Of a DNA stretch of 64,000 nucleotides, positions 5,094-45,252 are shown piece by piece (within the stretch, counting starts at the first letter, position 1; the number at the start of each line of letters is the position of its first letter). The position numbers were made by a program, and so were the translations under genes. Under the pieces are notes generated by a model, which searched no databases, had not been told where the DNA came from, and saw only the letters and a list, made by a program, of their open reading frames with translations. Origin of the DNA: Neoechinorhynchus agilis (taxonomy: Eukaryota; Animalia; Acanthocephala); NCBI GenBank assembly GCA_051530055.1, contig CM121342.1, positions 9,315,480 through 9,379,479 of the forward strand. Direction: 5' to 3'.

Positions 5094-5479
5094 TTTCGAC
5101 TGTATTGGTACACAGATTGAAAACACTTCGTCGCTGTTCTGCTGATCTCTTGAACCACGAACGAATTGATGAATTTTAAAGTAAAACGATTTTAGTCTCG
5201 ATTCGAAGAGCTCGCGCGTGGATCTTTAAATTCACACGGTCTTCAAACATTGATCTCAGCTGCTTTTATACTCACTTGTTTATTGTTGACATTTTTTGAA
5301 AATATTATTGCAGTTCATGCCAGTCTATGTGATGTCCTCGTTTTGAGTAGTGTTTTGGCAAACGTTTTATGTCATAATCAATGACCAGGTAAATAGACGA
5401 ATGCTTATATTGGCCCACCTCCATTCGCGATCCATTGCTTCAACTGCTCGATCGACAAGGATGTGCACCGTTTGAGTTT

Positions 5480-5583
5480 TTAGCGGCGTCACGAAAAGAA
5501 AACCAAGTATGTTCTTTCGTCTTTCGGCTAAGGGAAACTTCTTACGGGTACACGTCAATCCCGTGGAAGAAGTTGCCGCCACA
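5480..5583 (-). repeat. 3' LTR (104 bp)
   Basis: Identical to 9508-9641 apart from a 30-bp indel. Starts TGTGGCGGC and ends GCCGCTAA; preceded on the minus strand by purine tract GGAGGGGAGGTA. Confidence 0.95.
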
Positions 5584-5607
5584 TACCTCCCCTCCAGTGT
5601 CGCCGCA

Positions 5608-8600
5608 CTAATCCGTTCCGTCCTGGAAACGTGCCGGTCTTTTGACTTGCCGACCGCAGCGCGTCGTTTGCTGGTTGGGAGGCCGTACTGGGTGCAGCAC
5701 CGGATCAGGGATTTGTGGTACATGGAGTTGGTCATTTGTTTGCTGGCTCACGTGGGCTCTCTTCAATCTGTCTACCGAGACGTGATGTTCTCTCCCGTTG
5801 ATCTGGACCTTGAAAGTTTTGGCACCAGTCTGGAGGACCCTGTACGGGCCATCATACTGACAAGACAGCGGGGGCTTGACCGCGTCGACCCTGACAAAGA
5901 CAAATTTGGCATTATCCAGGGAAGCTGGCGTTCTGGTAGGGTGATTGCTGTTGGCCTTCTTGGTCCACCTTGGAGGCGCGGGCATTAAATCCATTAGCTT
6001 GTCTCTGAGTTGTGCTAAACGGAGGCTGGGTATTTCGGATGCAGCGTCCTGAACAAACTCTCCAGGTAGTCGCAGTGTTGATCCGTAGACTACTTCCGCC
6101 GGGGAACAACCAAGGTCTTCTTTGGGCAAGGTTCTGAGCTCTAAGAGGACCCAAGGCAGGTCTCTGGCCCACGCCGATGATGAAAGTCGAGCCGTGAGGG
6201 AGGATTTGAGCTGTCGGTGGAAACGTTCTACCATGCCGTTGGCTTGCGGGTGGTAGGCGGTCGTACGGTGGACGTCTACTCCGAGGGCTTCGCCAAGGTG
6301 CGACCAAATTGCGGAGGTGAATTGGTTTCCTCTGTCGGAGGTAATATGGCTCGGTACGCCGAACCGAGCAACCCATGCGCCGAGGAATGCCTTTGCGCAA
6401 GTCCCTGCGGTTATGTCGCTTACCGGAACTGCTTCGGGCCACCGCGTGTGTCGGTCAACCATGGTTAGTAAGTATTTAAATCCGTTGGAGGATGGAAGGG
6501 GTCCAACCAAGTCTACGTGAACCTGCGCGAAGCGGGTGGCCGGTAACTGGAATTCAGAGAGGTCGCTTTTTACATGTCTGTGGACTTTGGACCGCTGGCA
6601 AGAGACACAGACCCTCGACCATTGGCGGACGTCTTTTGCCAGGCCGTGCCATACGAACCGCTTGGAGATCAGCTTGATTGTTCCGTTCGCTCCGGGGTGC
6701 GCAGTGTCGTGGAGGAGGTGAAAGACCCGGCTGCGCCAGGCAAGTGGAAGCCATGGCCTGGGCTGATCCGTTGAGACGTCGCAGAGCAGTTTCGGTCCTC
6801 TGGATGAGAGGTCGATTTTCTCCCAGCGGAGTGCAGGACAGGCTATCTGACAGGTAATGTACTCGTCGTCGGCCTCCTGGTCCGCGGCCAACCGCTCGTA
6901 GTCGATACCCAAAGAGACGGCGGATACAACTGGGGCGCGGGAGAGAGAGTCCGCGACTACGTTGTCTTGACCGGATACGTGGCGTATGTCAGAGGTGTAC
7001 TCTGCGATGAACGCCAGGTGTCGCTGTTGACGGGCTGATATCGGAGTGGACTTTTTCGCCAAGCTGAATATGAGCGGCTTGTGGTCGGTGAAAATCGTGA
7101 ACTCGCGTCCCTCGACTTGGGGGAGAAAGTGTTTGACCGCGAGAAAAACGGCCAAAAGCTCCTTATCGTAGGTGCTGTACCTTGTCTCGGCATCACGCAG
7201 CTTTCTGCTGAAGAAGGAGAGGGGCTGCCAGGTACCACCTTGTTTCCGTTGCTGGAGGGCTGCGCCGACTGCCCGGTCCGAGGCATCAGTGATGATGGCG
7301 AGCGCTGCTTCTGCGTTGGGGTGAGCAAGGAGGGCTGCATGTGCCAATAGCTCCTTGGTGTTTTGGAAGGCCTGCGAGGATTCTAAATCCAACGGGACGA
7401 TGTTGTTCTTTGCCTTGGGGTGGACGTCCAGAACTCGGTGGAGAGGGACCATGATCTTGGCGGCTCGGGGAAGGAAACGATGGTAGTAGTTGACCATCCC
7501 CAGGAACCGCTGTAGCTCGATCATCGTTAAGGGCTTAGGATACTCGCGGATGATCTTGACCTTGTCTGGTAGGGGAGCGATGCCGGCACCCGAAACCTTG
7601 TGTCCCAGGAATTCGACGGAGCTGAGACCGAAACTGCATTTCGCCGCGTTGATGACCAGGCCGAACTTCTGTAGTCGTGTGAGGAGTACTTCCAGGTGTC
7701 TGAGGTGTTCCGTCTTGTTACGGGAAGCGACGAGGATGTCGTCGATGTAGACGAAAATGTACGGTATTTCGCCTAGGACGGAGTCCATAAATCTCTGGAA
7801 GGTCTGGGCGCTGTTGCGTAGGCCGAACGGCATACGAGTGTACTCCCAAAGGCCGAATGGGGTGATTATCGCCGTTTTTGAGATGTCTTCCGGGGCTACC
7901 GGGATCTGGTGGTAGCCCTTGACCAAGTCGATCTTTGAAAAGACTGAACATCCGTGCAGGTTGCCTGCAAAATCATGGATGTGCGGCAGAGGGTATCTGT
8001 CTGGCTCCGTCGCAGCGTTTATTTGTCTGTAGTCCCCACAGGGCCGCTTGGTTCCGTCGGTCTTGTCGACTGTATGAAGGGGGCTCGACCATGGGCTGCT
8101 TGACTTGCGGATGATCCCATTCTGTTCGAGTTTCCTGAACTCTTCCTTTACTGTCCGGAGGATATCTGGAGCGAGGCGCCGTGCCCGTGCGTGTCTCGGT
8201 GGTCCGCGTGTCACTATGTGATGTTGCACCTGGTGTTGCACAGCCGAGTCGAATCTTGGTGTAAGGACAGCTGGATACCGGAGGAGCAACGCCTCGAAGT
8301 TGTTACTGGGCCTGGTCAGGACGCTGACCAGTTGGGTTGACCTCGGCGTTTGAAGGGGAATTGTGGTGGTTCGTGTATTGGAAACCAATCTTCGGCCTTG
8401 CAAGTCGATCATTAGCCCGACGTTTCGGAGGAAATCGGAACCAAGGATGGGATGCTTGACGTCGGCTATGATAAATTTCCACTGGTACCGGGCCCTGCCT
8501 GCGAGATTGATCGATAGGCTTTTAGTGCCGTAGGTCAGGATGGTGCTGTGGTTGGCGGCGATGAGCCTTTTTTTGTTGGGATGGGCTCGTTCGTTTCCGG

Positions 8601-8742
8601 ACGGTGGAACTATGCTGACTTGCGCCCCTGTGTCCACGAGGAAACTTCGACGGGAGTTTGCATCAAACACGAAAAAAAGGTCGCCCATGCTGCTGGTGCC
8701 GGTCGCGTGGGCGATTACTGTCGGCCGGCATCGGCGTTTCCC
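5608..8742 (-). CDS. pol: Pol polyprotein (protease, RT, RNase H, integrase with GPY/F motif)
   Basis: [40 protein letters not shown] (HDTAH...CVSC), [24 protein letters not shown]. Uninterrupted within ORF 5608-8916; the true start is inferred at the frameshift site. Confidence 0.95.
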
Positions 8743-9489
8743 TGTGTTGTTGAGGCAACTTTGCCGTTGAAAATGCAAGGTGGGATGCAGTTCCTGGATC
8801 GGTTGCCCCACTGGGCATGGAAACGGCATATACCTGGTATAATCCTCGCAGCTGATTTGTTTTTGCGGCGTTGTCGAATCCCGTCCACCATCGGGCTTGT
8901 CTGCTCGATCGCACATACTGTCGAGTCTCCTGCGACTTGAAAATAGAACTTGTCTGCCACTTCGGCCAGTTCGGTCAATTTGAGAGTATCCATGGATGCG
9001 ACGAGTTCACGGACCTTCGTAGGCAGCTTGCTAATGTAGTGGTAACGGAACAGGGGATTGGCGGCCGGGCAAGCGGGAGGGGGTATCCTCGTTGATTGTC
9101 ATCTCCACTATTTCCTGCATCCGCCGATATCCAGGAATGCTGAAGATCTGCCTCAGGCGAGCTTTCAGCCCATCGTACCGATCGCCGGGGGACGGCAGGT
9201 TGGCGACAAAACTCCCGAGCCGGCACAGAGTCTCGGCGTCCAAACTAGTAAATACATAGTCATATTTTGTCTGATCCTGGGTGATGTGGCGCAGTTGGAA
9301 TGTCGATTCCATCTGCAAAAACCACATATCGACGTCCTTCGGAGTAAACGTCGGAAGTCTCACTGAGACAGAGCTGATCTGAGCGAGGTCTGCCATTGCC
9401 TGGTTTATGGAAATAACCGAGGAAGTGCTTCCGCTTGATTGTGGTTCCGTGACGATGTCGCTATCAGAAGGTTGCTGTTGTTGTGCCAT
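8715..9489 (-). pseudogene. gag: Gag, disrupted by an internal deletion/frameshift near 9060-9075
   Basis: N-half VRLPTFTPKDVDMWFLQMESTF...TPSRL is in one frame. C-half PLFRYHYISKLP...LAEVADK...[18 protein letters not shown] (CHCC) is in another. Confidence 0.85.
8736..8742 (-). promoter_or_regulatory. Putative -1 ribosomal frameshift heptamer G_GGA_AAC
   Basis: Gag frame reads [10 protein letters not shown] and the -1 frame reads GKRRCRPTV into pol. The XXXYYYZ heptamer lies just before the gag stop. Confidence 0.75.
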
Positions 9490-9491
9490 TC

Positions 9492-9505
9492 CGTCGGGGT
9501 CACCA
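9492..9505 (-). promoter_or_regulatory. Primer-binding site complementary to tRNA-Trp 3' end
   Basis: TGGTGACCCCGACG lies 2 nt after the 5' LTR and matches the metazoan tRNA-Trp end (...CGTCGGGGTCACCA, recalled sequence). Confidence 0.85.
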
Positions 9506-9507
9506 AT

Positions 9508-9641
9508 TTAGCGGCGTCACGAAAAGAAAACCAAGTATATTAATATCTGATACATGAGTTACCTGTTTGTTCTTTCGTCTTTCGGCTAAGGGAAACTTCT
9601 TACGGGTACACGTCAATCCCGTGGAAGAAGTTGCCGCCACA
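9508..9641 (-). repeat. 5' LTR (134 bp)
   Basis: Direct repeat of 5480-5583 with an extra 30 bp (ATTAATATCTGATACATGAGTTACCTGTTT). Confidence 0.95.
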
Positions 9642-11975: not shown

Positions 11976-14600
11976 TGCCTTCACCAGTCGTTTTTGTAGG
12001 GAAAGTGTTCTCAATATTTTCGGAATATCATACTTGTCATGCTTTGGCTTCCTGACATGAATATCTAGGTTTTTTAATATATATCGCACATACACAACAC
12101 ACCAAAACACATAAACGTTATATAAACGATATTGTTCAATGACGTAAATTCGTCATCACTACATTTCTTCCCCTTGAAGATAACGGTGCTTTCGCCTTAT
12201 TCGTGTACTTCGCCGGAGCCCTAGTCCCTCGTTCACTTCTTTTCGTGCTTCTGATTCATCTTCGTTTCTTTCGCTTTGGTCATCTGGTAATCTAAATTCC
12301 TCATCGCTCATATTCCTTTCAGCTTCACTACTTTCCGTGCTCGATCTTTGTTCTGATTCTTGTCGCGTATTGCCTCTTTCCACTATCTGATCGCTTTCAT
12401 TTTCATTCTCGCCCCTCGTTAAATCTCCGCCTACCTCTTCATTGATATTTTGCTTTGAATCCTCCTGATCTCTTTTCCCAATCGTTCTTTTTCTCAATTG
12501 GTCGGCATGCATTCTCTTTTCCCCTCCAGTTGTTTGTACGACATAAGACAAAGGTCCATTCTGTTTCATTATGACGCCCTCTTTCCATTCTTTTTTAATA
12601 GTGTCTCTAACCCACACCTTATCGTCCGCCTTGTAATCTGTCAAAGTTGCACAATTCTTATCATGGTTCTGTTTTTGCAGTGTTTTCTTGTTGTTGGATG
12701 TCTTAATTGCACTCGGTTTTATATTATCCATCAGAGACGTTAAACGTCGACCCATCATCATTTCGGCTGGACTTTTTTGTGTTATGGTGTGCGGGGTGTT
12801 TCTATAGCACAGAAGAAAATTTTGCAGACTTCTTTGCTCGGGTCTTGTTCGTCGTTTTAGGGTCGCCACAAATCTCTCTGCCAGTCCATTTGTTTTAGGA
12901 TGGTAGATGAAACTCCTACAATGTGAGATTTCATTTTCATTACAAAACGTTCTGAACTCATTTGAGATGAACTGCGGTCCGTTATCAGATACGATTCATT
13001 AAGGGATTCCGAACCTAGGTAGCACCTCCCGCAGGCAATTGATGGTTGTTTGTGCCGTGAAACTTGGTTTCAACCATACCTCTGGCCATTTTGAGAACGC
13101 GTCGACTGCTACCAGAAAATACATACCATCCATGGGAGCCGCGAAATCCACATTAATTCTCTTCCCCATTGGAATAATGGTTGTTCTCGAGTATTTGGTC
13201 GTTGTCTCTGGCAATCGACACAGCATGCAACATGTCATTCGATGTCCTTACCCATTACCGGCCACCAAGAGTAATATCTTGCTAAGGCATCATTGCCTTC
13301 TCTCCTGGATGCCCTTAATGCAGCTTTTGTAAAACCTCGTTTCTTTGCGAAGCGGGGATCACCATCTGGTCGAGCCATAATAATACATCATTTTCCATTG
13401 ATAGCTCATCCTTGCGTTTCACAAAATCCGTATCTTCGGATTTCGGTTTTACTGGCCATCCGGATATCAGATAACGCTTTACTCGAGCTACTTGTGTATC
13501 TCTGATTGATTCCTCTTTTAGTCTTGCCAAGGATAAATTCAGGATTGTCGGTGTTTCCTCCCTGACGCGCGCTATATCCATCTCAGGTTCGTTTGAAAGA
13601 TCCGAATTAAGACTAATGGGCATTCGAGAAAGGACATCAGCGTAATAGTTATTGACATCGGCTACGTGCTTGACTTCATAATCGTATTCTGCCATTTGAA
13701 TCGCCCATCTTATCAACCTAGAGTTAGCGACCTTTCCCAGATTCTGTTGGCGTCCGAAAATGTACTCAAGGGGTTTGTGATCAGTATATAACTCAAACTT
13801 TCGATCAAACACAAAATCGTGGAAACGTTTCACGCCATATAGCAGCGCCAGGACTTCTTTTTCATTAAAATCTGGAATTTTTAATGCTGTTTTTACTATA
13901 ATTTTGCTTGTGTCAGTAGAATTGAGATTCGTTCTTTTTGTCAAATTCTTCCGTGTTTATATTTTTCAACCGTGATTTTTTGCATTATTTTAATGTTTTT
14001 AATTAAAATCTGGAATTTTTAATGCTGTTTTTACTATAATTTTGCTTAAAAGTGTCAGTGAAATTGGGATTCGTTCTTTTTGTCAAACTCTTCCGTGTTT
14101 ATACTTTTCATCCGTGAAGCAAAACATACAGGTTGCAGATCACCTTTTTCATTTATGTGGAATAACACGGTTCCAAGTCATAATTCACTAGCATCACATG
14201 CTAGTGCTATGCTTCTTTTCCGATCGTATGGAATCAATCCTCGCGGTCTTCTCAATGCTTCTTTGACTTTTTGAAACGCGTTCTGGTGGTCATCATTCCA
14301 TTGCCACGTTATACCTTTCTGTGTTAATTCATAAAGCGTGTTGCAGGATCGATGAAAATCGGCACAAAATCGTGCATGGAAATTTGCTAGACCTTGAAAA
14401 GCTCTCAAATCTTTAACATTCTTAGGTTCCGAAGCTTCTGCTAGTGCCAATACTTCCCAAATCAATCTTGTTCACATCCACGAGTTCCGCTAGAATTTTT
14501 AAACCAAACTATAACATCCCTGGTAGGCCAAACAACGATCGACCAGATGCTGGCACCACGACTGCGTCGACTATCTTCCATTTACTAGGAAATCATCCAT
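11976..14600 (-). mobile_element. Degenerate Mag-like Ty3/gypsy pol fragment with PPT and partial 3' LTR
   Basis: Protease tail (VVVPASGRSLFGLP), connection (PKNVKDLRAFQGLANFHARF), RNase H (CDAS; TDHKPL; ADVLSR), integrase (VDFAAP; YRNTPH), PPT AAGGGGAAGAAA (12164-12175), then LTR TGTAGTG from 12163. Confidence 0.85.
13865..14117. repeat. AT-rich tandem repeat (~138-bp unit, ~1.8 copies) interrupting RNase H
   Basis: Units start TTAAAATCTGGAATTTTTAATGCTG at 13865 and 14003, inserted between the codons for FASR and EKE. Confidence 0.85.
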
Positions 14601-14639
14601 GCGAGACTGTGGGACATAGTCTTCTTGTGTCAAAGCAGC

Positions 14640-15160
14640 TCTAACCCTTTCCTGGATAAGCAACGCAGCATCCCCTTTCTTGTCAAGCCCAGCGATATGA
14701 ACACCAATCACTTTCCATGTCCCACTCACTTTGGTCAACAAAGGGGTAGATGTTTTCGACACATAGGCCCACCCATGTGTAATCGGCAAGAACTCGGGCA
14801 ACGCCCTCAATCGTTATGGAATCGATAGGTCTCAGGCTTAACGCGATCATCCTTTTGATATGAGTAAAGTTGGCGTCAAAGAGAACCAACTCACCCTCAC
14901 CCTCGACCATGTCAATATCCTGATGACGAAGAATAGCATTAACATTCGTTGGGGACTGTCGAACTCCCTTAAGAATTTCGGGACATAATTATGTCGACTT
15001 CATGGAAGTGTATCAACACTGTGTCTAACCACAGAAACGACAACGAAAACCAAGTGCCTTCTTCTGGTATCAGATGTAGTGGAACAACTATGGTATGTGG
15101 CCCCACGGCGAACGCGTGACAATTGCCCACTTCCGTTGAGATTTTAGCGATAGATTTCGC
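14640..15160 (-). pseudogene. 3C-like cysteine protease (viral), frameshifted
   Basis: GNCHAFAVGPHTIVVPLH (His codon 15074-15076), DTVLIHF, DYTWVGLC (Cys 14761-14763), TPLLTKVSGTWKVIGVHIAG (GVHIAG 14688-14705). Confidence 0.8.
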
Positions 15161-16700
15161 CTAATTATTAATAATATCAATCAGAGAAAGATCAGCTTCT
15201 GGCTTCATGTGCTTCTTCATATGAACTTTGTTCGGAGGCGCCGCACGCCGTATCTGGCTTCTCTTCACTGGTTGAAACTCTTTTTCAGCGCCCGATAGCG
15301 CAGGAATAGTCTCCGGCTCCATGTGGAAGGGGATCACCCTATCGGATTCTTCCCAGTCGACCACATCTTCAGCTCGCTGCCATTTGGTCCGGAACCATCT
15401 CAAAAGGCAGTCACCGGCACAAAGCGACGTCAGGACTAGAAAAAAACCCAACCAAGAGCTTCTTCATACCCCCCATCATGCTACGGAGACCTTCTATGAA
15501 TTGGTTCTTCGCAGTCACCATGAACTCGAAGACCCTTCTGTCGAGGAAACCCTCCCATTTCTGTTTGCACCAGTCCCAAGCCTCTTTGAATCTATCCACG
15601 GAACTGGAAGCCTTATTTTGGAGAGGATGAAGAATGCAGTCTTCGAACAACATACGCACCCGGGCTAGAACGCACATCGGGGCGTCGTGAAGCGACGAAA
15701 AATTGACCTCCATTTTCTCATCATCGACAACCCAGACAAAACCAGGCCCATTCTTGACTCTGTGGCGCCACATCCCCCCTTGTAAACGGCCGATGTCCAC
15801 GTTAAGTGAACACAATCATGGAGCATCTTAAAGAACTCGATTCTAGGGGTCTGAAATGCCACAGCTTGCCATGATATAGAGCATTAAGATGTACTCTTGA
15901 TGTCTGTCGGCCTGGGGCTTGCATATCTGGTCAAATTCGTTCCATTTTATCCGGTATCCCGATGCACTTTGTATACGACCTGTAGGCCTCAGATGTTCCA
16001 CACATCTTCGACTGTAAAGTCCCGACACGGCTTCAGTTCATGGACCTCATCCTTCTGAGACTCGTCCCACATGATTCCGTGCTTTTCGGCCATGGACAGG
16101 AGATACTTTTCATTTTCGAGTTCCTTTTTGTTGAGTTCTACCTCCTCGTGTGTTGGGAGCTTCTTTTTAATACGGCCACTGGAGTCCCGATAGTGTCGAC
16201 CTGCTTGTTCCCCATTTGCGGTTTATAAATAACCCTCGCGCTGTCTATGCTGGCTTCTTCTAAACCGCCCTGTTTTAGAGGTCGGCTGACATGATAAAGG
16301 ATCCGGTCCGGTAACCAACATATTGCAACTTCCACTTCGTGCACTCACACCATCTTTGACCCCACAGGTCACGTAGAGGTCTTGGTAGTACTTCTGATGC
16401 GTTCTGTGGTCGACAATATGTTGGCCTATGCGCCACCCAGCGGACCCACCATGAGGTGATGCGTAGTTGTTGTTGCAGTCCGAGCATGCCATGCGTTTTG
16501 ATTCACACAAAGCGCATCTGACCTGGGCATCTTTGAACTAAAGAGTTTTTTGGGTTTCCCCCATCTCGGACATAATAACTTTGATCCTGTTTATTCGCTG
16601 CTCGTCGTCATGAACATTCGCCATCAAAGCCGACTGAGAGGATTTACGCAGGAAACAAAGTGCTACATATGCCACGAATTCATCATAATTGTAGGTTTGG

Positions 16701-17150
16701 CTACCAATACGAAACTAGCGATTCCTTATTGTAGCCACCGGGGAGAATAGTACCTACTCGTTTCAATTCAGCTTGAATATCAATTCGCCTCTTAAGCGCA
16801 TCGGTATTCGTCAAAACGTCACCAACAACACCAGTCAGCCCATTGAACGCCGCGTTTGATGTGATATATACGAAATCAGAGCTAAAGAACAGCGTGCCCT
16901 TTGCTGAGCACTCGGCCACATTCAAAGGATAAGCTGTCTCGTCACCCATTCGTATAACATTCAATACTTCATTGAGGACAATCGAGCGGTGACGAGCCTG
17001 CAACTCAAAAACGCGTTGATAATTGTAAGTGTCGAAATACGAGCTATTCGGATTATAGCTGTATTTGTCCACTGAAGCGCTATAAGGCAGGGGTCACAAT
17101 GCCGCATACACATCATGGAAAAGATGGTCTACCAATACCGATTTACCTAG
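16701..17150 (-). pseudogene. 2C-like SF3 RNA helicase (viral), partial
   Basis: In one frame: LGKSVLVDHL (Walker A end, 17139-17147), one TGA, then YSYNPNSSYFDTYNYQRV, YPLNVAECSAKGTLFFSSDFVYITSN (motif C) and DALKRRIDI. Walker B acidic residues appear deleted. Confidence 0.9.
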
Positions 17151-19240
17151 GATCGTACCGATTCATAATAGAACAAGAGCGTTAACAGAGGCTTCGTCTC
17201 CTAGTAACGCGAAGGAATTGAGGAGTTTCATCGGACTGGCAAACTTTCACGTTCGATTCTATCCGAAGTTCCAAGAGCTATGTTCACCGCTGAACGAACT
17301 AACGGGATCGAGATCCCAATGGGAATGGAAAGCGCGTCTTGGGAAGGCCTTTGTTGAGCTAAAAAAAGTATTTACGAAATCCTAGAGGATTAATTCAATT
17401 CGATCACAAAAAGGAAGTTGCACTAGTTTGCGACGCGAACAGAGATCAACGATTTGGTGCCGATATCGTTCGCTTCACGCGTCCTCACCAAAGCAGAGAA
17501 AAACTGTTCGCAAATCGAAAAGGAAGCGCTTGCATTAATTTATGGCGTAAAAAAATACCATGATTATCTGTATGGGAGGTGTTTTACCATGTTCACGGAT
17601 CACAAGCCATTGCAGTTTATTTTCGGTCGAAATCGAGTTCTGTCCAAGGTAGCCAACTCTCGCATCGTTCGCTGGGCTCTTGAATTGTCATAACCCGATG
17701 TAAGGGAGCGAGTTTACTATATAACGCATGAGAACGAAGCCGCTCTGGATCTCAACGATACAAATTTAAGAGAATGCAAGAAAACAGATAAGCAAATGCC
17801 AAAGGTGAAGAGATTTTTAACATTACGATGGCCAGTCGCGGTGGAAGCGATGGATATAGCTTTTTGGAGGCGCCGGGCAGAATTATCTGTACAAGGCAGC
17901 GTCATAATTTGGTTGGACCGAATAGTGATTTTGAAGGCTCTGTGACGAAACGTATTATCGAAATTGTACGAAGGACATCCTGGCATTGCAGCGATGAAAG
18001 CTCTTGCTCGCTATTATTGTCGATGGCCAGGAATGGATCAGAACATCGAAAAGCACATCAACAGATGTTATGAGTGTCAATCCAGGAGACCGGCACTGAG
18101 GGGGATGCCACTATTCTCTTGGGAACCATCATGCGAGCCTTGGAAGAGGATCCATCTAGACTTTGCCGGGCCGATCAGCGGCTCGATGTACATGATAGCG
18201 ATAGACGCGTTTTCTAGGTGGCCCGAAGTATAGATGCGACTTTCATTCAATGCCAGAAACACAATCGAGTGTTTAAAGGAAGCATTTGCCCGCTGGGGAG
18301 TACCAGAACGGACAGTCACGGATAATGGGCCTCAGTTTGTGGCAGGAGAGCTCTCAGAGTTCTGTGGAAAGAATGGGATTACCCATTGTCGCAGCTCGTT
18401 CTATCACCCGAGGATCAACGGACTGGCTAAGCGATTCGTTGGAACGTTGAAAGGCAGAACAAGTGCTGGCATCAATAGCCTCCATAAGATGGTTTTGCTT
18501 ACCGCAACACTTGTAACGCGCTCACAGGCCAGTCACCGTCACAAATGATGATGGGACGGCGAATCCCGATATTGTTCGACAATTTGAAGCCAACACCTGC
18601 GAAGACCGAGGGGTAAAAACGGAGGAATGAAAAATGTCACCACGACCAAAAGGCCAGAAGATTCGAGGAATTCGATGGTAAGAGCGCAGTCTAGTACCCC
18701 GATGGTCGCCAAGAGAGATGGATACAAGCGTTGATACAGGAAAGAAAAGGCCCACTGTCGTACAAAACAGAGACAACCAGGGGATCATGAAAGCTCACGC
18801 CGATCATTTAAGGCACAGGGAGAGTGAATACTCCGAGCAGGAATACAATAAGCCCGCCGAGGAACAGGAGGCACGAAGTCAGTCTCAGTAGTGTGGAAAT
18901 GGCACAACGAGAGAAGCACGAAAGGACGACGGATGAACTCGGCGAATTAAACGACCCTGGGGATGCGAAGAATGAGGAGAATGTATCGGTGTATCATAAG
19001 GAAGAGAAGGTTCTTCAACCTAGGCGAAGCACTCGGATACGGTCGAAGCCCATCAGACCTCATGATGTTTTCCTTAAGCAAAAAGAAAATGGGGACGAAC
19101 GTCATGTATGATTGATATTGCGCACAATCCGCTAAGCGATATTAATGCGCAACGTGCCATTAACGTGATAGAGCAAACAGGGGGTGTGCATTTTGTTCGA
19201 AGGTTTTACTAAAAAGGTTACTCATGTCAGTTTTAAGGAG
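17151..19240 (+). mobile_element. Degenerate Mag-like Ty3/gypsy pol fragment (connection, RNase H, integrase, probable LTR start)
   Basis: FASRVLTKAEKNCSQIEKEALA, TDHKPL, HPGIAAMKALAR..C..C, IHLDFAGP, TDNGPQF. Confidence 0.85.
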
Positions 19241-19249
19241 GCCAACATT

Positions 19250-19840
19250 CTATAACCCGTAAATGTGACCAATATCGCACAATGCATACCGCTAACCTCC
19301 CCTAAAGACTGGGTTCATATAAACATGGCCAGAAAGATTTTTCTCTCCAAAAAAGGAAAGGCCATTTCAGCAGCGGACGATGTGTGTCCAATTTCCATTC
19401 AAAACTCTCTCGTTACCCAGCATAAGGTGGATTTTGGAAAAGCGGCATTCTTATCCAGCGAATCGGATCTAAGAAGAAAACTGATTCTTGAGACCATTCA
19501 CATCCGGCGAAATCCAACGATGGAAGGCAACAAATCAAACCACACTCTGGTGCTACCAAAGTTGCGTAGTACGACGAACCAATTAGTCGGCAACAAACCG
19601 CAGGTGTGTGCGGATCGAAAACCTGCGGATCTGAGCTACATCCAGACATGACCTGCTATGCATGCTGTTTATGTCATCTCCATTTTAGATAGAGACTAAA
19701 GAGGCAAGGAAAATCTTGTGAAATATTTCGCAAATAAATGAGTAACGACAACACCGGGGACAGGATTCGCCAACGTATAATCAAATTTACCCCGAGGGCA
19801 ATGACATATGCCATTTAGGAAAATGGTGGTTTGCATTCTT
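19250..19840 (+). mobile_element. Chimera of LINE RT fragment (~19250-19415) and PLE family C 3' end with degenerate hammerhead (~19692-19731)
   Basis: RKIFLSKK..DVCPISIQNSLV resembles the LINE at 2201-2782. The rest is similar to 21345-21680. The HHR core is mutated (CTAAAGA). Confidence 0.75.
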
Positions 19841-20439
19841 GTGCTAGAACCCTCACCATTAGCGTCTCGCGTCTCGCATGGCATTTAAGAAGGCTGCTTC
19901 ACGAAGTCCACGCTGATTTGGCTGAGGCGCTTTTCAAACTATGAATAGATGTTGGGGAAGTGAGAGAGCAGCGCACAGAAAAGTTCATCAAGGATGAATT
20001 TTGGACGGAATCTAACGTTACTGATGCACATTTTGTAAATAAAAAATTGACAATTTGGTGAATATCAATCAAATAAGACAGTTACGAAACTCTTATACAA
20101 TCTAATTAGCAAAGAACTATGGTCGATAAACCAGTGATTTAACGGATCTTTGGAGCAATAATAAGAGAACTTCGTGTTAAGAAAATGGTTGAAGAATTGA
20201 ACAAGCAATTGGCGATAATCGATTGCAACGCTAAAATGCAATGCAGCTACAGAAAATCTCTAAAAACTAGCGTTTGGAAAAAACTAAGAAACATTTAGGA
20301 AAATTTGATTTATGACTGAAATCTAAAACACTTTTAGGTTTACACAGCGGAGTTTGATATCAGCTACAAGGCAGCCTCGTAATAAATTCTCCAACAACTG
20401 AGAGTCAATTGATTATAATAATTATGATCACAATGAAGA

Positions 20440-20940
20440 ACATTAATCGAAAAACGACGTTTCCAATGATTTCAAAATGTTACTCGCCTCCAAGCTCCAA
20501 AGTTATACGATTCATCAGCGAACAAAACAGAGCGTTGCGAGGAACAAATTTGCAGCCATAGAAAACGGACGGGGATCTGGAAGGTATAAAAAACGGCAGA
20601 ATTCTGATCCTTTTATTTATTTGGCGCGCGTTTAAATATTTGAACAATGAATTATCTTTTCAACATAAATACTTGTTGTCATTTTTTAAAAATCAATCTA
20701 TTAAAAGTAGTCTACTTTCTCTGTCTTAAATTAACGGCGATTTTATTGGTTTTCTGTTTTTTTACACAAGAAATGTTCATTATTAGACCTACGGGCAGTT
20801 CTAAGTTTAATAGAATCAAAAAATTTACAATCAATTTTTAAAGCTGGCAGCATATAAAAATGGTTTTTTAATCGAACGTATCGATCGGTACCGTAAATTA
20901 AAACGTTAAAGCCCACTGCATTCAAAAAATTAAAAATCGG
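20440..20940 (+). repeat. Dispersed AT-rich repeat (inverse copy of 4360-4850)
   Basis: Shared blocks, e.g. ggcgcgcgtttaaatattt and aaagctggcagcatataaaaatgg. Confidence 0.7.
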
Positions 20941-20959
20941 ATACCATGCTGACCAACGT

Positions 20960-21100
20960 TCATTGGTTTGCGGTGTGTGGCAAATAAATTCACAGAAGAC
21001 GTCTCTGTCATCCTTCATCCAACTGATTACAGTCTCAAATGTTGGCGAGGATCCAACTTTATAATCATTTATTCGGTCCATCCAAGTGATGGCCACATTT
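20960..21100 (-). pseudogene. Possible BTB-BACK (kelch-like) gene fragment
   Basis: TFETVISWMKDDRD resembles the BACK motif VFEAVIxWxKHD. The match is short. Confidence 0.3.
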
Positions 21101-21344
21101 TATCTCACTGAAATCGCACCCAATCCTCCCAGTGAACATTTTGCACAAAAATTTGCTTTCCGCCTTAAAATCTTAAGGTAATTTAATATTTGGTAGACGC
21201 AAAAGTGAAAAGGAAACCATCGATTTTAATGGAATCGTTAAGATGAGGATGCCCCGTTTATTGAAAAGCTAAAATTGATTTTTCTTTGCCTTCTGTAGCC
21301 GTTTAAACATTGTTAGAGATTGAGGAAGCTGTGCGTGTCAATAG

Positions 21345-22600
21345 AAAATTATAATTGTGCGTTGGCGAATCCTTTCCCCGGTGTTTTCGTTAATCATTTA
21401 TTTTAGAAATATTTCGCAAGGTTTTCCTTGCCTTTTCAGTCTATCTAAAATGGAGGACGTAGACAGCATGCACAGCCGGTCACGTCTGCATGTAGCTCAG
21501 ATCCGCGGGTTTGCTAATACCCGAAGTGTGGGGAGTTCCATCCGCACACACCTCTTGCGGTTTGTTGCCACGCAACTTTGGTAGCACCAGCGTGTGGTTT
21601 GATTTATTACCTTCCATCGTCGGATTTCCCCGGATGTGAATGGCCTCAAGAATTTGTCTTCTTCTAAGGTCCGGTTCGCTGGTTATGAATCTCGCCTTTT
21701 CAAAATCCACCCTGTGCTGGATTGTTTGCTGGTGGTTCGAGATTGCTGAGGATTTGTCAAATGTCCTGCAAGCTTGCTTATGCTGCGAAATCCGTTTCCT
21801 GATCCCTTGCATGGTTTGTCCAATGTAGACCTTTGGGCATTCTGCACATGGGATTTTGTATATCCCTGATTTGGTCTCTTGCATGGTTTGCCTCTTGAGA
21901 ATACCTGCAATGGATGCACCAGTTTGTTGTAGATCAAAAGATTTGGAGCGAGGTAGTTGAGGCGCCTCAGTTTTTCGGTCGCGTTGTCACTTATGTGGTT
22001 AAAGCCAGTGTTTTTGAGGGAGATGCTTGCGGTATCCTTCTTCTTGCGATGGCCGCTATGTGTTGCCTTTTTCAGACTGATTTTGATGGCATATTCAGGG
22101 AAGCCTCGTGATCTAAGAACTTTCGTGATACTTTGTTTTTCTTCTTATCAATCCCTGCTTTCTGAAGAAATCATCCTGGCCCTCTTGAAGTAGGACGTTG
22201 CCGCTGTTATTTTATAGTGGAACGGTTGGTGACTCGACGAGTGAAGTGGACCCCATGCTATACCTGGTTTGCGGTAGAGTTGTGTTTTGATGTTGCCTTT
22301 ATCATCGTGTTTTATCTTTACGTCCAAAAAGGAGATAGCCCCCTCTTCATCTTCCTGAGTCATTGACCACTGGATGCTTGGATCCTCCATGTTGAGTGGA
22401 ATGCTTAGGTCTCCCTTGCTCGTTTCATCATCAGTGACTATGAACACGTCGTCAACATAGCGATACCACTTTTTGATGTTGGGTTGCTTCTTCAAGTTGT
22501 TTTCCCATCTTCTCATGTAGAGATCAGCTAGAGTGGGTGCCAGAGATTGCAACTCCGTCGCGTTGTTCATAGAAAACTTGATCGAATTCAAAAACGGTCT
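21345..22600 (-). mobile_element. Penelope-like element (RT + GIY-YIG + pLTR; family C), 5'-truncated
   Basis: PTLADLYM, WYRYVDDVF, ISFLDV, LYRKP; GIYKIPCAECPKVYIGQT. Confidence 0.92.
21404..21443 (-). ncRNA. Minimal type I hammerhead (PLE family C), core G8>A
   Basis: TAGA-CTGAAAA-G-GCAAGG-AAAA-CCTTGC-GAAA-TA-T-T-TCTA. Confidence 0.75.
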
Positions 22601-23027
22601 TGCATGTGCACCACTGCAGTAGAGTTATCCACGTTTTATGATCAAGGCGCGGTTCTTCGCATTGATTGTGTAGAAGTTCAGCTGCTTCTTGAGGACTCTA
22701 CGGAAAAATAACTAGATTACTGAGCACTTTCATCAACAGACGAGGTCTTCTACAGCCAGGGCTTCAGCCGGACAAGAAGGGATAGACTAAAATTTAATGA
22801 TGAAAACAATAGCGGCTTGCCAGTAAAAACTTAAAATAGATTGTAATGAGTGTGATGAGGGAGTATAAAAACGCCTCCTGTCTATTTGTTTGCCGCCCTC
22901 CACAAGCGATTGCACGTTGGTGCGCGTTTGACTCGATTTTCACCCTTTAAACGCAATTGGTTCTAACGTTTGAATTTACGGCGCCGATTGGTCAATCGGA
23001 CTGAAAAAACCATTTTTATATGCTGCC

Positions 23028-25244: not shown

Positions 25245-26200
25245 TATTTTGTCCACTGTGACACCGTCCGGTCTACGCCAATCGAGTCGGCAAATACTGC
25301 TCGGCTCTAGGATGTTGGGCGCATTCACTGAATTGAGGGCACAGCTAAGAATTGCGTTCACTTCGGCATGTCGTGAGTACCTTCCGCCCGATTGCCGGCA
25401 GACGAGACCATAGCGTCCCGATGGTTCCACGGTCGCTCTGCAACGGCAGCGATGGGATGTGCACTTCGGTACCGCAAGTCTTAGGGACACTGCAAAACTG
25501 ATTGTTTGCAACCATTGACGGGAACCTGCTAGCTGCCTGAATCTCCACATCAAAGATTAAGCGCCTCCACGAAATCTTCATCCAAAGTGTAATTCTCCCC
25601 AAGAACGGATTTAACTACTTCGCGGCTTGCTTAATACGATCAGAAATAAGTTGGCAGAGAAATATCGTCTGCTTTTCGGATACCCAAACCGCCGGACGAC
25701 ACAGGCAAGGACGCTTGACGCCAGGCTTCGTTCGGCAGCTGAGTACTTAAAATTTTCTCGAGGGAGGCTTTCACCGTCGCGTCTAATTTTGCCAGCTTAT
25801 CTTTATGTCTAAAAAAGGTGCTGTGTGCAGCTTATACAGCAGTTTTGGAATAAAGAGGGTGTTCGTGATCATGAACCGAGCCTCGTGTGAAGACAATTCA
25901 TCAACTAGTTCGCACAGCACCGAAAGTTGCGGTTGAAGATTGGCAATCTCTGCCTCGACATTCCAATTTATTTCATACTGTGAGATCCTTCTCTCGTTTA
26001 TACGAAAGCCGTTCTCTTCGCTTTCCTGGGTGGCAATTTTTCTTAGCGAAGCGTTCCGGAGACCCTCTTCTAGTTAAAATTTTATCGAATCGTTATTGGG
26101 GTGCCCGGTACATCAACAAAAGTACGCGGACCCTCTTGCTGACCTACATCCTTTCTCATCAAGATGATGGAACACTTTCTAAAGTAAGAAACGGACACCT
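25245..26200 (-). mobile_element. Old CRE-like non-LTR fragment (RT C-terminus + RLE)
   Basis: AWRQASLPVSSGGLGIR; HRCRC..GLVC..GGRYSRHAEVN; EPSSICRLDWRRPDG. Confidence 0.8.
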
Positions 26201-26227
26201 TGGAAATCCAAGTTATTTTTTTGGATG

Positions 26228-28260
26228 AAATCCACACCGTATTTTCCTCCCTTCCGCTGCACTGACGGCACCATCGGCGATTTCGAGGGAGTAGGGGATG
26301 TTGCTGGCTGCGAGGGTGTCCACACACGTGGCTTCCCAGGGAATGCATTTGCCCTCCCGCCACGGGAAGACCGAAATTCCATCGGGCCTACGGCCGTCTA
26401 GTCGACAAAGGTGGGCGGGTTCCAGGATGTTCGGGAAGTTCGCCGTTCTCAACGCCCGAGAAATTGCGTTATTGATTTCAGAATGGCGTGAGAATCTTCC
26501 TCCTGATCTTCTGCAGACGAGACCGTGTCGCCCGAAAGCATCAACCAAAGACCCACATCGACAGCGATTTGGCGTGCATATCGGGAGACCAAGTCTTAAG
26601 GATACTGCGATCCTCGTTACCTCATCAGTAAGAAGAGTTCCCACTGATGCCAGAGGAACAGCCTCCAACCACGCCCCAGATTTTCCTGTTGAAACTGCCA
26701 ACAGTCTAGCTCGGACGACCCCATCGCGAGAACCTGAAAGTAGAGAGCTGTGAGCTCTCGCGACAAGAGGTCCGTCCCAGATAGACTGTCTGAGGCCATT
26801 CACGGTAACATGGTTAGCGCCTGTCTGCTGTCACCATTCCTCAACCGCCACTACTAAATCTCGGTCAAGACAGAACTTTTCCTTCAAAATTTTCTTCGAT
26901 ACTGGTAGGCTCTCCTCAAACGATCCAAGAAAGGCTGGCAAAGCAAGGTCCACTAGTGCCCGAATCCCCAATCCCCCAGATGACACAGGCAAAGAAGCTT
27001 GTCGCCACGCCTCATATGAGAGCTGGACATTTAAAATACGCTCGAGACACGCCCTCACCTTGCCGTCGAGCTTAGCCAATCCTTCCTTATGTTTGAAAAA
27101 TGTTGCTGTTCGAACCTTGTACAATAATTTGGGGATGAAGAGCGCATCTTTATAAGAAACAAGGCTTCATGAGCCGAGAGAGCGCTCACCCTATCGCACA
27201 GCAACGAAAGTTTCGGTATGATATGGCCGATCTCATCTTCCACATTTGAATCGAAGACGCAACTGCCCAGGAGGCTTAGTTGCTCCCGAGTCACGAGTTT
27301 CAGAACTGGAGCTATGGCTTCGAAACCAGCCATTAGTTCTTTGACTTTGGTGGCGTCTCCAATATTCAATACAAGGAGCTCACATTTTCCAGCATTGAGC
27401 ACAATGCCCATCTTCGAGGTCTCCCTAATCAGCGTCTCCAAATCACGCAATACAACGGAGGGATCACCACCGAGCGTAGCGTCATCCAAGTACCAAGCGT
27501 TGAAGCTGGAATGGAGAGAATGCGCTATTGGATTTACTGTTAGGGAGAATGCGATTGGACTGAGGGGATCTCCTTGCTGCACTCCTCTTTCGGACCAAAT
27601 GAGGTGCTCTTCGAAAAGCAAAGGAATCGCCGTCCCGTAGGCATTGAGAAAATACTGGAAGGCTTCTGGTGCGTGATCCCGAATTGCGCAGAACATGGTT
27701 TCTCTATTGAGAGAGTTAAAGGCGTTCCGAAAATCGCACTTAAGAATCACGCACGGCTCTGAGCTTCTCGTAGCAAAGTTTCGGAGCGGGTGGACAATAG
27801 CTTCAACCCCGCAGGATGTGCAGCAGCCCAGTTGGACTGGACGAAGTTGTTGTCCGGTTTTCTCTGTAATACGTTCGCAGAGAATTTTTCCTGCGAGTCG
27901 GCGTATCGTCGAGCCATGAAGGCGCACAGTTCGTTTGCAGGCAATCATTGAGCAATCCCGTAAATGCTTTGGCGACCAGATATCGCGCGCCTTTAGGGAT
28001 CCGTTTCAGGACGTTCCTGGGCAGAAACCGCACGATATCAGGTATCGAAATAGAATCAGTGGTGATCTGAGGGGTCTCAATCACAAAAGGTTCGATTAAT
28101 TGTGGTGGAGAACCAGACCCACTACAGCGGAGATCCCGGGGACCATGCGTTGCACGGAACCAAAATTGGATACCACGAAGACCTCTTTCCGGTTCAACGA
28201 CTCCTTCTACGATCAGAAAGACGGACACAGAAAAGTGCGAAATTCTATTCCGTAACATAG
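26228..28260 (-). mobile_element. CRE-like non-LTR retrotransposon (RT + zinc knuckle + restriction-like endonuclease), young subfamily
   Basis: CDFRNAFN, GVQQGDPL, WYLDDATLGG, CRCG..HGLVC..RHSEIN, RPDGISVFPW..WEATCVDT. Nearly identical to 49190-50965. Confidence 0.9.
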
Positions 28261-28269
28261 AAGAGGGTC

Positions 28270-28750
28270 GTGCAAAGGGCGTGATAAAGCGCGACTTTGA
28301 ACTTTGATGGGAATCTAGAACACAAAATTAACACCCTTCTAAAGAAATTATCGGTGCTTTGCGATAGGGTCTGTGAGCTTGGATCACACGAGGCCCCAAG
28401 TTCCTTTATGCTCTACGCATTGCGCCGTTTTTCAAGCACAATATTCAGCTTGGCAAGCTAGATGACAGATTGAAGGACTGCCTCGAGCGAGTTTTAAATG
28501 TTCAAGTGTCAAAAGAGGCATGGCGACAAGTATTTTTGCCTTTATCTTCTGGCGGGTTGGGCACCTGGAAAACAGCAGACATATCCCTGCCCGCATTTTT
28601 AGGCTCCGATGTGGGATGCAGGAGCGCAGTTCAGCGCATTTTGCAAGATACGTATCGTCTTGATGGGCATTTTTGAGAGGGAATCAGTTTGTGGTGTACG
28701 CTGACTAACTCCGATCAAGTAAGAAAATTTTTCGCGTGGTACTTTAACCT
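28270..28750 (+). mobile_element. CRE-like RT C-terminal fragment
   Basis: CLERVLNVQVSKEAWRQVFLPLSSGGLG. Confidence 0.75.
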
Positions 28751-29639
28751 AAGCGATCAACCTGTTTTTAAAAAGATTGATATCCTTGTTTAAACTTTTA
28801 CGTCCAATCTTAAAATTAATGATGACATTAGCAAGCTTAAAAAATACTAAATATCGCTAGAATCAATGCTAATCGAGCTTTCAAGCTAGGTCTTAGACCC
28901 AAAGCCATCCAAATAGTCTGGAATCCCTGGGCTATTTCGGCCATCGTCTTTTTTTTCTAGAGGCAGACCGCCAGAATTACGCCTGAATTTCTTTAGCACA
29001 TTTCTCAGTCCTCTATTCCTCCGAGCATAAGCCATAATGGACCTTGTCAGAAATGTCCAAATGGCTAAATTTGTAAACAAGCATCAGTCTTGCTTTCTCT
29101 AAAAAATTTGCCACCCCCGCATCATGTCTGTGTGCTCATGCGAATAAATCACTTGTTGTTATCGTGACAAATTCGAGTCAAATAAGGCGGACTACAGACT
29201 AAAACTCAGGATAACGCCACCGTTACTTACCTTTTAGATCTGAACAAATCCGACGAAACGATCGAAATATTGAGAACAATAAATCAACATCTATTTTTCT
29301 TATCCCCAAAAATACACATATTGCAAACGTAGTAAATGTCTAAAACAATGGGTAAACAGGAACCCAAATTGAGGTTCCGACCACCTTGATCATCCTACCT
29401 TTTTCTAGAATCTGAAAGTCCCAAGTAGAGGACGAATTATTAATAAAATTAAATTATTTTTCTCTATTTCGCCTTGACCAAAACAGATATAGAAGTCTGG
29501 ACCAAAAAATCTAGTGTTGTATATACATGAAGATATAGAAGTTCCCATCCAAAATCTTTTGTCCTTTTGGAATTTCCGGAAGAGCGAAGATGGGAACCTG
29601 ACCGAATATCAAAAGGACTTACAAACAAGCGGAGAACTT

Positions 29640-32340
29640 GCAAGCAAAACTAAATTCGGTTCATCAAATCACTACTTTGGGACAAACAATCTCATTTGCA
29701 CGGCAAACACGATCTTTATCCTATGTTACGACTGGAGGATGTGGTCAAATCCCGCGATCACTACAATCGGCAACACCAGAAAATCCGTCGACGCTCCCCG
29801 ATGACGCCGGCAGTCTTCCTTCCGCTGCTGATCTCGTGCGTGTTCTTCCCAGGAAAAATGATTCACCGCACTTCTGCTGGACTGCTTGGAGCGAAATGCA
29901 GTCCTCTTGTATACGGCTCTTTGCTTTCTCCAGACTTGTACTTTCCGCTGGCGACAGTTCGGAGGAATCCCTCACTGCGGTAATCAAAAGACGCCTCGTT
30001 TCCTTTGAGGAGTGTTTCTCGAGCACTCGTCGGTTAGCAAAGGAGCATCCCGAACAACGTGCGAATGAGACTAACTGCCATCGAACATCTATAAGACCGC
30101 TTGCTGAGCGTGTATTTTCAAAACTCGCTGATGGAGACGCTCGGGGAGCTGTCCGTATTTTGTCCTCCTCTGAAATATTTGCAAGTTATTCGCCCTCCAA
30201 ACTTCAGGGTTTAAAGTTGAAGCAACCGCAAAGTTCAACCCAAACAGAAAATCCTACATGTTCCATCCCTCAAAGACATTCCACTTCGACAGTTGAACTG
30301 AGAATGGCCATATCCTCCTTCGCCAATGGCCCTGGCATCGATGGGCTTCGTCCTGAGCACCTAAACGATATGGTCGACCCTTTCATCGAAGAAAATTTAC
30401 ATCTGCGGGCAATTGAGTTATTTTTGGCGCATCTTTGTGCGCTTTGAACAAAAAGACTAGTGGGATTCGTCCCATCACCATAAGCTCTGCTCTACGTCGC
30501 AAAAATCCTTTGCAAGCGTATTGCAGAAGGGATAGGGCAGCAACTTCGCTCAGTCCAACTAAGATGCTGTACACCCTGCGGGTCCGAAGCCAGTGTCCAC
30601 GCACTCCGCCAGTTCATAACCAATAGTTCATGCCGTGTGTGATTTTGAAGCGCGACTTTACAAATGCCTTCAATTCCATTCACCGTACCGCTCTGTCTGA
30701 GGAACTCAAAAGTCACGCACCAGAAGATTTTCCTTGTTTTCTCAACGCATACGGGACCCCGACTCCCTTGCTGTTCAATGACCACCTCATTTGGTCCGAA
30801 CGAGGAGTACAGCAGGGAGACCCTCTCGGTCCAATCGCTTTCTCCCTTGCATTGAATCCAATAGCGCACTCTCCCCAGTCCAGCTTTAACGCTTGGTACC
30901 TGGATGACGCTACGCTCGGAGGTTATCCCTTCATAGTACTGTGCGATCTGGAGACACTCGTAAAGGAGATTGCGAGATTGGGCGTTGAGTTTCATGCACG
31001 GAAATGCTAACTGTTGGTAATGAATATCGAAGATGAGTCAGCACAGAGCGAAATCGTCAAAGTTTTTAGAAATATGGCACCCGGTTTAGAACTTATCACT
31101 CTAGACCGGCTGAGTCTTCTAGGGAGCTGAGTTTTTGATCCTAATGTGGAAAATGAAATCGAGCATCTACTCCCGAACATCACGATGTTGTGCGATAGAG
31201 TCCGGGAACTTTCGTCACACGAGGCTCTATTCCTGATCAAGAATACCCTCTTCATCCCGAAACTGCTTTACAAACTGAGCACCGCTTCCTTCTTCAAGCA
31301 CGTTGATAAGTTTAAGAAGCTCGATGACATTGTGAAGGCGTGTCTCGAGCACATTTTAAATATCCAGCTATCAGACGAGGCCAGACGACAAGCTTCATTG
31401 TCTGTATCGTCCGGTGGCTTCGGTATTCAAAAAACAGTAGATGTGTCGTTGCCCGCGTTTTTAGGATCATTCGGAGGGAGTCGGGATCTAGTAAAACGTA
31501 TGTAGGGACCCAAGTTCTGTTTAGCGGACGAATTTCTAGTGCGGTCCATGAATGGTGGGAGAATACGGGTTACGACTAAGTCCCTTGAATGGCCTAAAGC
31601 TATATTTCTGGGATAAACCTTTTGTCGCCTGAGCTCCCAGTTCTCTAATTTCAGGCTCTCGCGATGAGGTCGACCGTGCAAGATTGCTGGCAGTCTCTAC
31701 AAGAGAATTCTTAGCATGGTTAGAAGCAATACCCATTGCATCCGTGGGAACACTCTTCGTAGACGAAGCAGTTCGGATCGGAATGTCCTTCAGATTAGAT
31801 CTACCGATTTGTGTCGAGCATCGTTGCCGGTGTGGAATGATCGTGGATCCACTGGGGAGGCATGGTCTTGTTTGCAACAAATATGGGGGTCGTTTCTCAC
31901 GGCATGCTGAATTGAACGACGTAATTTCGCGTGCCCTAAATACGGTGAACGTCCAAAACATTTAAGAGCTAAGCAACCTGTGCCGACTAGATAGTCGTCG
32001 TCCGGATGGCGTCACCGTATTCCCGTGGCGAGAAGGCAAATGTCTTCTCTGGAACGCCCTGTAGACAAGTTCGCGGCAAGTAACAGGAGGTTTGTAGTGC
32101 AGTCACCAGGGGGGAACGGCTACTGCCGCGGAGGACCGAAAGGTGGCGAAATATAAAGAATTAACTAGGTCTCACGTTTTTGTACCCTTTGGGGTGGAGA
32201 CTCTTGCCGCGCTCGGTAGCTCGGCACTTAAACTTACAGAGGAGTTATCGAGTAGACTCCAGGCCAAGACAGGAAATACAAGAGCTGGTGCCTTCCTGCG
32301 CCAAAACATTGGTCTCGCGATCCAAAGAGGAAACGCAGGG
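29640..32340 (+). mobile_element. Long degenerate CRE-like element
   Basis: GPGIDGLRPEHL, RPITI, DFTNAFN, GVQQGDPLGP, WYLDDATLGG, HRCRCG, FVPFGVETL, IGLAIQRGNA. Confidence 0.9.
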
Positions 32341-45110: not shown

Positions 45111-45252
45111 CTTCTTAGGTATAATTCATTTTTATTTCCAAAACCAAAAAAACACGCAACACACACACCAAAACCCCTTTTAACTTAAACACGCATCCTA
45201 CATAACGCGTAACGTATCGACCTCTTAACATAACGTTAAGCGTTTCTCCCTC

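Follow-up and report, generated by a model that had tools for sequence, protein, structure and literature searches.

A decayed picorna-like virus fragment among Gypsy remnants in the genome of the acanthocephalan Neoechinorhynchus agilis

Introduction

The order Picornavirales accounts for 8 of the 1,222 eukaryote-labelled RNA-dependent RNA polymerases (RdRps) of DNA source reported in PMC12548735. This agrees with the preliminary description of the locus treated here, according to which reported endogenous viral elements (EVEs) of non-retroviral origin come mostly from other virus groups. Here we describe one such element in the acanthocephalan Neoechinorhynchus agilis. It lies in a stretch of 64,000 nucleotides (assembly GCA_051530055.1, contig CM121342.1, positions 9,315,480 to 9,379,479 of the forward strand), which is called the window throughout and to which all positions refer. 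From 17148 to approximately 14580 the minus strand holds part of the polyprotein of a picorna-like virus in decayed, collinear form, an identification about which we have practically no doubt. The fragment is homologous to a virus without a DNA stage, it is joined to host DNA, and it is incomplete and carries disabling mutations. It is thus a non-retroviral EVE, an ordinary kind of object from a seldom-endogenised order.

Three described systems come close to it. The EVEs of Aedes aegypti found beside Ty3/Gypsy elements are likewise RNA-virus fragments in Gypsy remnants of a transposon-rich region; the present element, however, comes from another virus order and another host phylum and has no long terminal repeat (LTR) at its junctions, and the output of PIWI-interacting RNAs (piRNAs) is a feature of the Aedes case (PMC6797480). 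The dicistro-like TgEVE3 and TtEVE3 of horseshoe crabs are, as here, fragments of Picornavirales non-structural polyproteins in an animal genome, but their hosts are arthropods and their source is Dicistroviridae-like, whereas the element described here belongs to a clade without a family and sits in the genome of a gnathiferan parasite (PMC12282059). A picorna-like EVE is rare, as the preliminary description implied, but given these earlier reports it is not new in kind (PMC12282059). Finally, the rhabdo-like putative EVEs of Pomphorhynchus laevis resemble our case in that an acanthocephalan genome carries several decayed insertions of RNA-virus sequence; they derive from the polymerase of a negative-strand virus and lie on unplaced contigs, and their host is not assured by the authors (PMC12548735). 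In contrast, the present element is of positive-strand origin, lies on a 16-Mb contig and is supported by reads. According to PMC12548735, no other virus of P. laevis has been described. In the literature searched, including PMC12690905, PMC11097642 and PMC11978097, no picorna-like virus or EVE is mentioned for Acanthocephala; few subscription journals were among the sources, and supplementary EVE lists could hold one. The element is unusual in virus order, length and host phylum.

Identity and Extent of the Viral Fragment

The fragment contains, in this order, a helicase, a spacer with a cysteine motif, a VPg-like segment and a 3C-like protease of which the two ends are recognisable (Table 1). 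Its upper end is sharp at 17148/17149, and the lower one falls within approximately 14580-14600. Since the Pfam models of 3C proteases stayed below the cut-off (Peptidase_C3G and C3 on the IGVHIAG piece, E 0.11 and 0.23), profiles were made from related viruses and run over the six frames of the window, with the reversed window as a control. Four matches were obtained in viral order: at 17150-16722 (E 4e-49), over the post-helicase segment (E 5.9e-10), over the VPg-like segment with the start of the protease (E 1.4e-7; 3.7e-7 with an earlier profile) and over the C-terminal part of the protease (E 0.004 over the whole window). The helicase-to-protease profiles gave no match in the reversed window. 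Polymerase, capsid and pre-helicase profiles had no match in the window either (best capsid E 0.13 vs. 0.78 in the reversed control); the RdRp is missing because the fragment stops before it.

The minus-strand motifs pointed out in the preliminary description are where it had put them: GKS at 17147-17139, YSYNPNSSYFDTY at 17063-17025, KGTLFFSSDFVYITSN at 16901-16854 and ALKRRID at 16799-16779 in the helicase, the hydrophobic stretch before the VPg-like segment, and VPLH at 15085-15074, GLC at 14769-14761 and IGVHIAG at 14708-14688 in the protease. Its interpretation as a helicase-VPg-3C block stands for the helicase, the VPg-like segment and both protease ends, all found by profile, while the GLC piece is assigned by position and did not score above 1000 shuffles. 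As in Picornavirales, an RNA-virus-type superfamily 3 (SF3) helicase is followed in order by a VPg-like segment and a chymotrypsin-like cysteine protease; the region of the catalytic cysteine is damaged and not significant alone.

Table 1. Virus-derived features and adjoining Gypsy remnants in the window.
Feature	Position	Strand	Remarks
Whole virus-derived fragment	14580..17148	-	approximately 2.57 kb; viral sense on minus strand
SF3 (2C-like) RNA helicase	16704..17148	-	begins inside Walker A; one stop (17096); four-codon Walker B gap
Post-helicase segment	16472..16705	-	CxxC-x6-CxxC motif (16516-16475); one stop (16540)
Spacer (3A-like region)	15340..16470	-	viral by position only; depth continuous with the rest; hydrophobic stretch 15445-15401
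VPg-like segment and N-terminal part of 3C-like protease	15032..15340	-	LSG motif at 15298, basic tract; VPLH; one stop (15163)
Protease middle ending in GLC	14761..14988	-	different frame; assigned by position
C-terminal part of 3C-like protease	14637..14744	-	IGVHIAG
End of Gypsy aspartyl protease region	14465..14584	-	same strand as viral sense, directly after the virus; 44% to Gypsy copy 37629-37751 (E 5e-5)
Decayed Gypsy pol (end of reverse transcriptase, RNase H, integrase)	12162..14456	-	Pfam RT_RNaseH, rve; mapping on intact Pol; multi-copy depth
Decayed Gypsy pol, second family (end of reverse transcriptase, RNase H, integrase)	17149..18784	+	opposite to viral sense; Pfam rve

The helicase matches Pfam RNA_helicase (PF00910; E 9e-11; score 42.6 bits, cut-off 21.5) and no other family and is 55% identical to its relative P0001. 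Substitution damage is light: of 22 columns with a conservation of 90% or more among 19 relatives, 21 are kept. Walker A is truncated, the letters upstream of GKS being Gypsy antisense. A search of PDB sequences with the helicase found no match. Assignment to a cellular AAA+ ATPase, a Helitron or a DNA-virus SF3 helicase was considered and rejected, RNA_helicase being the only Pfam match and the top matches being RNA-virus polyproteins. The motif behind the helicase has a similar CxxC-CxxC counterpart in five of the seven relatives tested, namely the five nearest. Across the following 1.1 kb (16470-15340) neither the clade profiles nor comparison with relatives revealed significant homology; the distance from GKS to VPg, 617 codons, lies close to the 517-574 of four near relatives.

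As had been noted in the preliminary description, the segment is broken by stops and frameshifts: the anchored stretches carry the three stops listed in Table 1, at least three frame changes and the in-frame gap at Walker B. Judged by its sequence, the fragment encodes no working helicase or protease, and neither a virus nor an active enzyme could be made from it.

Presence in Genomic DNA and Related Copies

Five of the nine listed sequencing runs, belonging to two studies, hold 85-98% of the sampled words of the element, and one small run holds none; no RNA run is listed among those that contain the element. Four runs were mapped on 12500-19500. Two of the runs, X8 (whole-genome shotgun) and X6 (Hi-C), come from a further sample; that runs X1-X4 are RNA is a guess only. 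Reads of both X8 and X6 covered every bin on both strands. In X8 the 11 bins that make up the element had a mean depth of approximately 16x, compared with approximately 19x for 18116-19500 (summed by hand), most Gypsy bins being deeper. For element and flank alike this is about half of what a genome of 46 Mb, the size given in PMC12690905, would lead one to expect; host DNA, filtering or hemizygosity could explain it.

Contigs bridge both junctions, the lower one at 14462-16517 (X1) and 14490-16517 (X5) and the upper one at 16672-17233 (X1) and 16672-17227 (X5). They reach at least 79 nt across each junction with zero or one differing letter. In all, six samples of one species label from three studies hold the element, with junction-crossing contigs in two of the studies. 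An assembly chimera, for which the preliminary description had foreseen a lack of genomic reads across the junctions, is not what the data show, as reads cover the stretch and contigs span both ends.

The fossil stands in NCBI as two host 'hypothetical proteins'. Its helicase frame is 100% identical to the model KAL7671869.1, labelled Neoechinorhynchus agilis and located on a 16.4-Mb contig. The first six residues of this model (17166-16704, minus strand) are encoded at 17166-17149, that is, in Gypsy antisense spliced to the viral helicase, and the model was therefore predicted from this very DNA. A second copy, KAL7674655.1, with the same label and on a 19.4-Mb contig, matches at 85% over 61 helicase residues and at 68% over the 60 residues behind, and the two are sisters in the helicase tree (support 100/97). 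The copies differ at 8 of 60 helicase columns, which are variable ones (mean conservation 0.38 vs. 0.60, permutation p 0.007), a pattern suggestive of divergence as viruses followed by separate captures. At 16480-16716 contigs break and the depth rises in X1, X5 and X8, which fits a further related copy.

Relatives of the Virus

A HMMER search over 1.84 billion representatives returned 58 matches, and a word-based protein search found one relative among 202 candidates. The top matches are picorna-like polyproteins: RNA_helicase was detected in all 16 that were scanned and RdRP_1 in 13 of them, not the AAA+, DNA-virus or Helitron proteins that would have spoken against a picorna-like origin. 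The nearest relative falls in Pisuviricota helicase clusters.

In a helicase tree of 85 rows, from which duplicates of foot-and-mouth disease virus (FMDV) and cluster duplicates were excluded, as were five named rows without a helicase match, the element lies within a 21-row clade (99/97) of Picornavirales without a family. Beihai sesarmid crab virus 2, Beihai picorna-like virus 99, Beihai barnacle virus 4, Sphaeripse virus, a mute swan faeces virus, Wenzhou shrew picorna-like virus 5 and Cryptolin calicivirus 1, which we take to be trematode-associated, are members of it. A quick polymerase tree of the relatives (98 rows) recovered the same clade (SH-like approximate likelihood ratio test 99). 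Membership in Picornaviridae or Secoviridae was rejected, because in this tree the clade is separate from the rows of FMDV, nepoviruses and torradoviruses, the labelled family references that it contained. In a 24-row tree the finer branching is weaker and deep support is weak, and grouping of the element with the Beihai-99 pair is rejected only mildly (approximately unbiased test, p 0.039).

The nearest sequences, P0016, P0001 (locus L001) and P0015, are unnamed and share 52-56% helicase identity with the element, compared with 45-50% for the nearest named virus. The earlier suggestion of a possibly undescribed lineage holds for these closest sequences but less so for the clade, which contains several named, if unclassified, viruses. 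With the clade of Beihai sesarmid crab virus 2 the element shares a Walker B region that departs from the standard, the CxxC-CxxC motif after the helicase, the VPg-like SG motif and the spacing from helicase to protease. Of the complete members, the majority have a single frame in which the capsid comes after the replication proteins, with weak to moderate picorna capsid matches after the RdRp, whereas the element is a DNA fossil with neither polymerase nor capsid.

Some details of the relatives deserve mention on their own. Their Walker B region, corresponding to window 17039-16990 (minus), reads E-x-Q-D or similar instead of the usual acidic pair. L001, the nearest IMG/VR contig, has an in-frame stop at 2509-2511 in the middle of the protease, the only one in a frame of 1,328 codons; a sequencing error, a defective genome or another endogenous copy are possible causes. 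P0016, the nearest of the unnamed sequences and from a Logan contig of 4,168 nt, has the same start within Walker A that the element has and stops short of VPg. A scan of IMG/VR with P0016 gave no match, and of 301 pattern matches in a metagenome scan none was confirmed.

Genomic Surroundings

Matches to transposon proteins occupy 24,024 of the 64,000 bases of the window, on both strands. At the upper junction 44 of the 60 nt to the right of 17149 agree with a Gypsy copy at 38506, compared with 9 of 45 to the left. One X5 contig departs from the window at 17149, and the 12 letters with which it does so are those of that copy; at the point inside Walker A where the present member of the family joins the virus, other members therefore go on as Gypsy. 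The lower end of the viral sequence, a few codons past the 3C-like protease, gives way to the Gypsy protease region and then to the end of the reverse transcriptase (RT), RNase H and integrase. The two flanks belong to different Gypsy families placed head to head, with no blastn match between them and 38-59% in protein. A repeat search found no terminal repeats, LTR or target-site duplication at the junctions, and neither a poly(A) tract nor a duplication was seen at the ends of the element.

Both flanking pol pieces (at 17149 and 14456) start at nearly one and the same place at the end of the RT (476 and 482 of the intact Pol) and are directed away from the virus. The left Gypsy is interrupted at 13858-14117 by a direct duplication of 140 bp, where many reads skip 251 bases; these reads probably come from other copies of the family. 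A young-looking Gypsy at 5479-9641 (minus) has an open pol of 1132 codons and terminal pieces that are 98.7-100% alike, and might be a source of active RT. Elsewhere in the window there are non-LTR elements with a restriction-like endonuclease motif (25254-32253, 49028-50946 and 57256-58259), presumably of the CRE type, Penelope-like GIY-YIG elements (19343-22624 and 47582-48106) and recent segmental duplicates 96-99% alike (45245-47447 / 61627-64000 and 51339-52691 / 56005-57361). Amid the transposons lies an intronless cullin-like frame of 332 codons (38631-39997, minus; Pfam Cullin E 3.5e-25), a host gene or a retrocopy.

Origin and Present State of the Element

We consider it likely, with a probability of roughly 0.7, that a helicase-to-3C piece of a picorna-like virus became fixed in the chromosomal DNA of the worm between two Gypsy pol remnants, likely through a Gypsy RT that copied viral RNA in an infected germline cell. 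The RT would have switched template between its own RNA and the viral RNA, the resulting hybrid complementary DNA would have entered a transposon-rich region, and later deletions together with the second Gypsy piece would have shaped the present ends; the virus lineage may have been captured more than once. For the route by way of Gypsy, which taken alone we judge somewhat probable, speak the position of both ends inside Gypsy pol and the passage of the viral 3' end into a Gypsy protease on the same strand. Virus-LTR hybrids of this kind have been sequenced in mosquito cells (PMC6797480).

Several points weigh against this explanation. Homology anchors neither the central 1.1 kb nor the GLC piece. 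Support from raw reads at the junctions is indirect, in the form of continuous depth, and one of the read sets holding the element may be the source sample of the assembly itself. Because there is no LTR or target-site duplication and the flanks are two families in opposite orientation, the ends seen today may differ from those at the time of insertion, and with 24 of 64 kb matching transposons the Gypsy neighbours can be there by chance or have arrived later. The eight differences of the second copy lie in one 20-residue stretch of a predicted protein and are therefore not independent. Finally, the nearest named virus is associated with a crab, and acanthocephalan larvae live in arthropods.

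The alternative that survives best concerns the route only: the same element could have been copied by the RT of a long interspersed nuclear element (LINE) or a Penelope element, or inserted as a patch where the DNA had broken, the Gypsy pieces having arrived or been joined afterwards. The abundance of presumed CRE-type elements, other LINEs and Penelope elements in the window is in keeping with this, as are two unrelated Gypsy families lying head to head without LTRs. Both junctions, however, lie inside Gypsy pol with the viral 3' end running directly into the same-strand protease, and the ends lack a poly(A) tract or duplication; this route is possible and on balance unlikely.

As to what capture by way of Gypsy, or any other route, has left behind, the element is at present most likely a neutral fossil, a putative role as an antiviral piRNA source being possible. 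That it works as such a source and silences a circulating relative of the virus, by analogy with Aedes mosquitoes, seems to us rather unlikely. The setting is dense in transposons and contains LTR fragments, and according to PMC12256650 N. agilis retains PIWI, clustered piRNAs and ping-pong and has no RdRP. Transposons, however, occur here on both strands, and none of the matches is a close living virus; the nearest, at 52-56% protein identity, is too far for piRNA pairing.

The source virus quite probably infected the worm itself, and the element likely marks acanthocephalans as hosts of an unclassified virus group. A less credible account, which we regard as improbable, is that the virus belonged to the crustacean intermediate host (or the fish) and that viral RNA got into the germline of the larva although the worm was not truly infected. 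Named relatives were found in samples of crabs, hermit crab, barnacles and crayfish, other clade members have crustacean and mollusc sources (PMC8624288, PMC7019641, bioRxiv 2025.06.19.660416), and larvae develop in the arthropod haemocoel (PMC12690905). On the other side, the existence of two or more diverged copies suggests that germline cells were reached repeatedly. Another member of the clade is Sphaeripse virus 1, listed from a trematode data set with the association marked unconfirmed and the family 'unassigned' (PMC9241645, Table S3), and several such 'invertebrate' viruses have been argued to belong to hidden parasites (PMC9241645).

A domesticated host gene, with the annotated 130-codon helicase frame expressed and functional, is very improbable: two gene models exist and the highly conserved columns are nearly all retained, but Walker A is cut, Walker B is gapped, a stop follows, and the first exon of the model consists of six codons of Gypsy antisense. 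Largely refuted, and hardly to be believed, are an assembly chimera or contaminant and a DNA-virus, Helitron or cellular AAA+ sequence, since, despite worms sampled from the host gut and a read set that may be the source of the assembly, samples of three studies hold the element, the reads share its stops and frameshifts, which are not expected of a live RNA virus, and the matches are Pisuviricota helicases.

Significance

Few RNA viruses are as common in invertebrates as Picornavirales, yet they are rarely endogenised. A multi-domain, read-supported example of 2.6 kb in a 46-Mb parasite genome supplies germline-level evidence of a host for a clade whose records come almost entirely from faecal samples and pooled invertebrates, and it informs a phylum whose viruses are nearly undescribed. 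A bolder reading, to which we give little credence, is that these worms have been repeatedly infected by a picorna-like lineage of their own, archived by way of Gypsy and used as inherited piRNA immunity, and that several of the 'crab' and 'barnacle' viruses of the clade are really helminth viruses. As the species keeps piRNAs and is without RdRP (PMC12256650), EVE-based piRNA immunity outside arthropods is testable here with small-RNA data. If true, this would be the first such case outside arthropods, in an animal without RdRP-amplified RNA interference.

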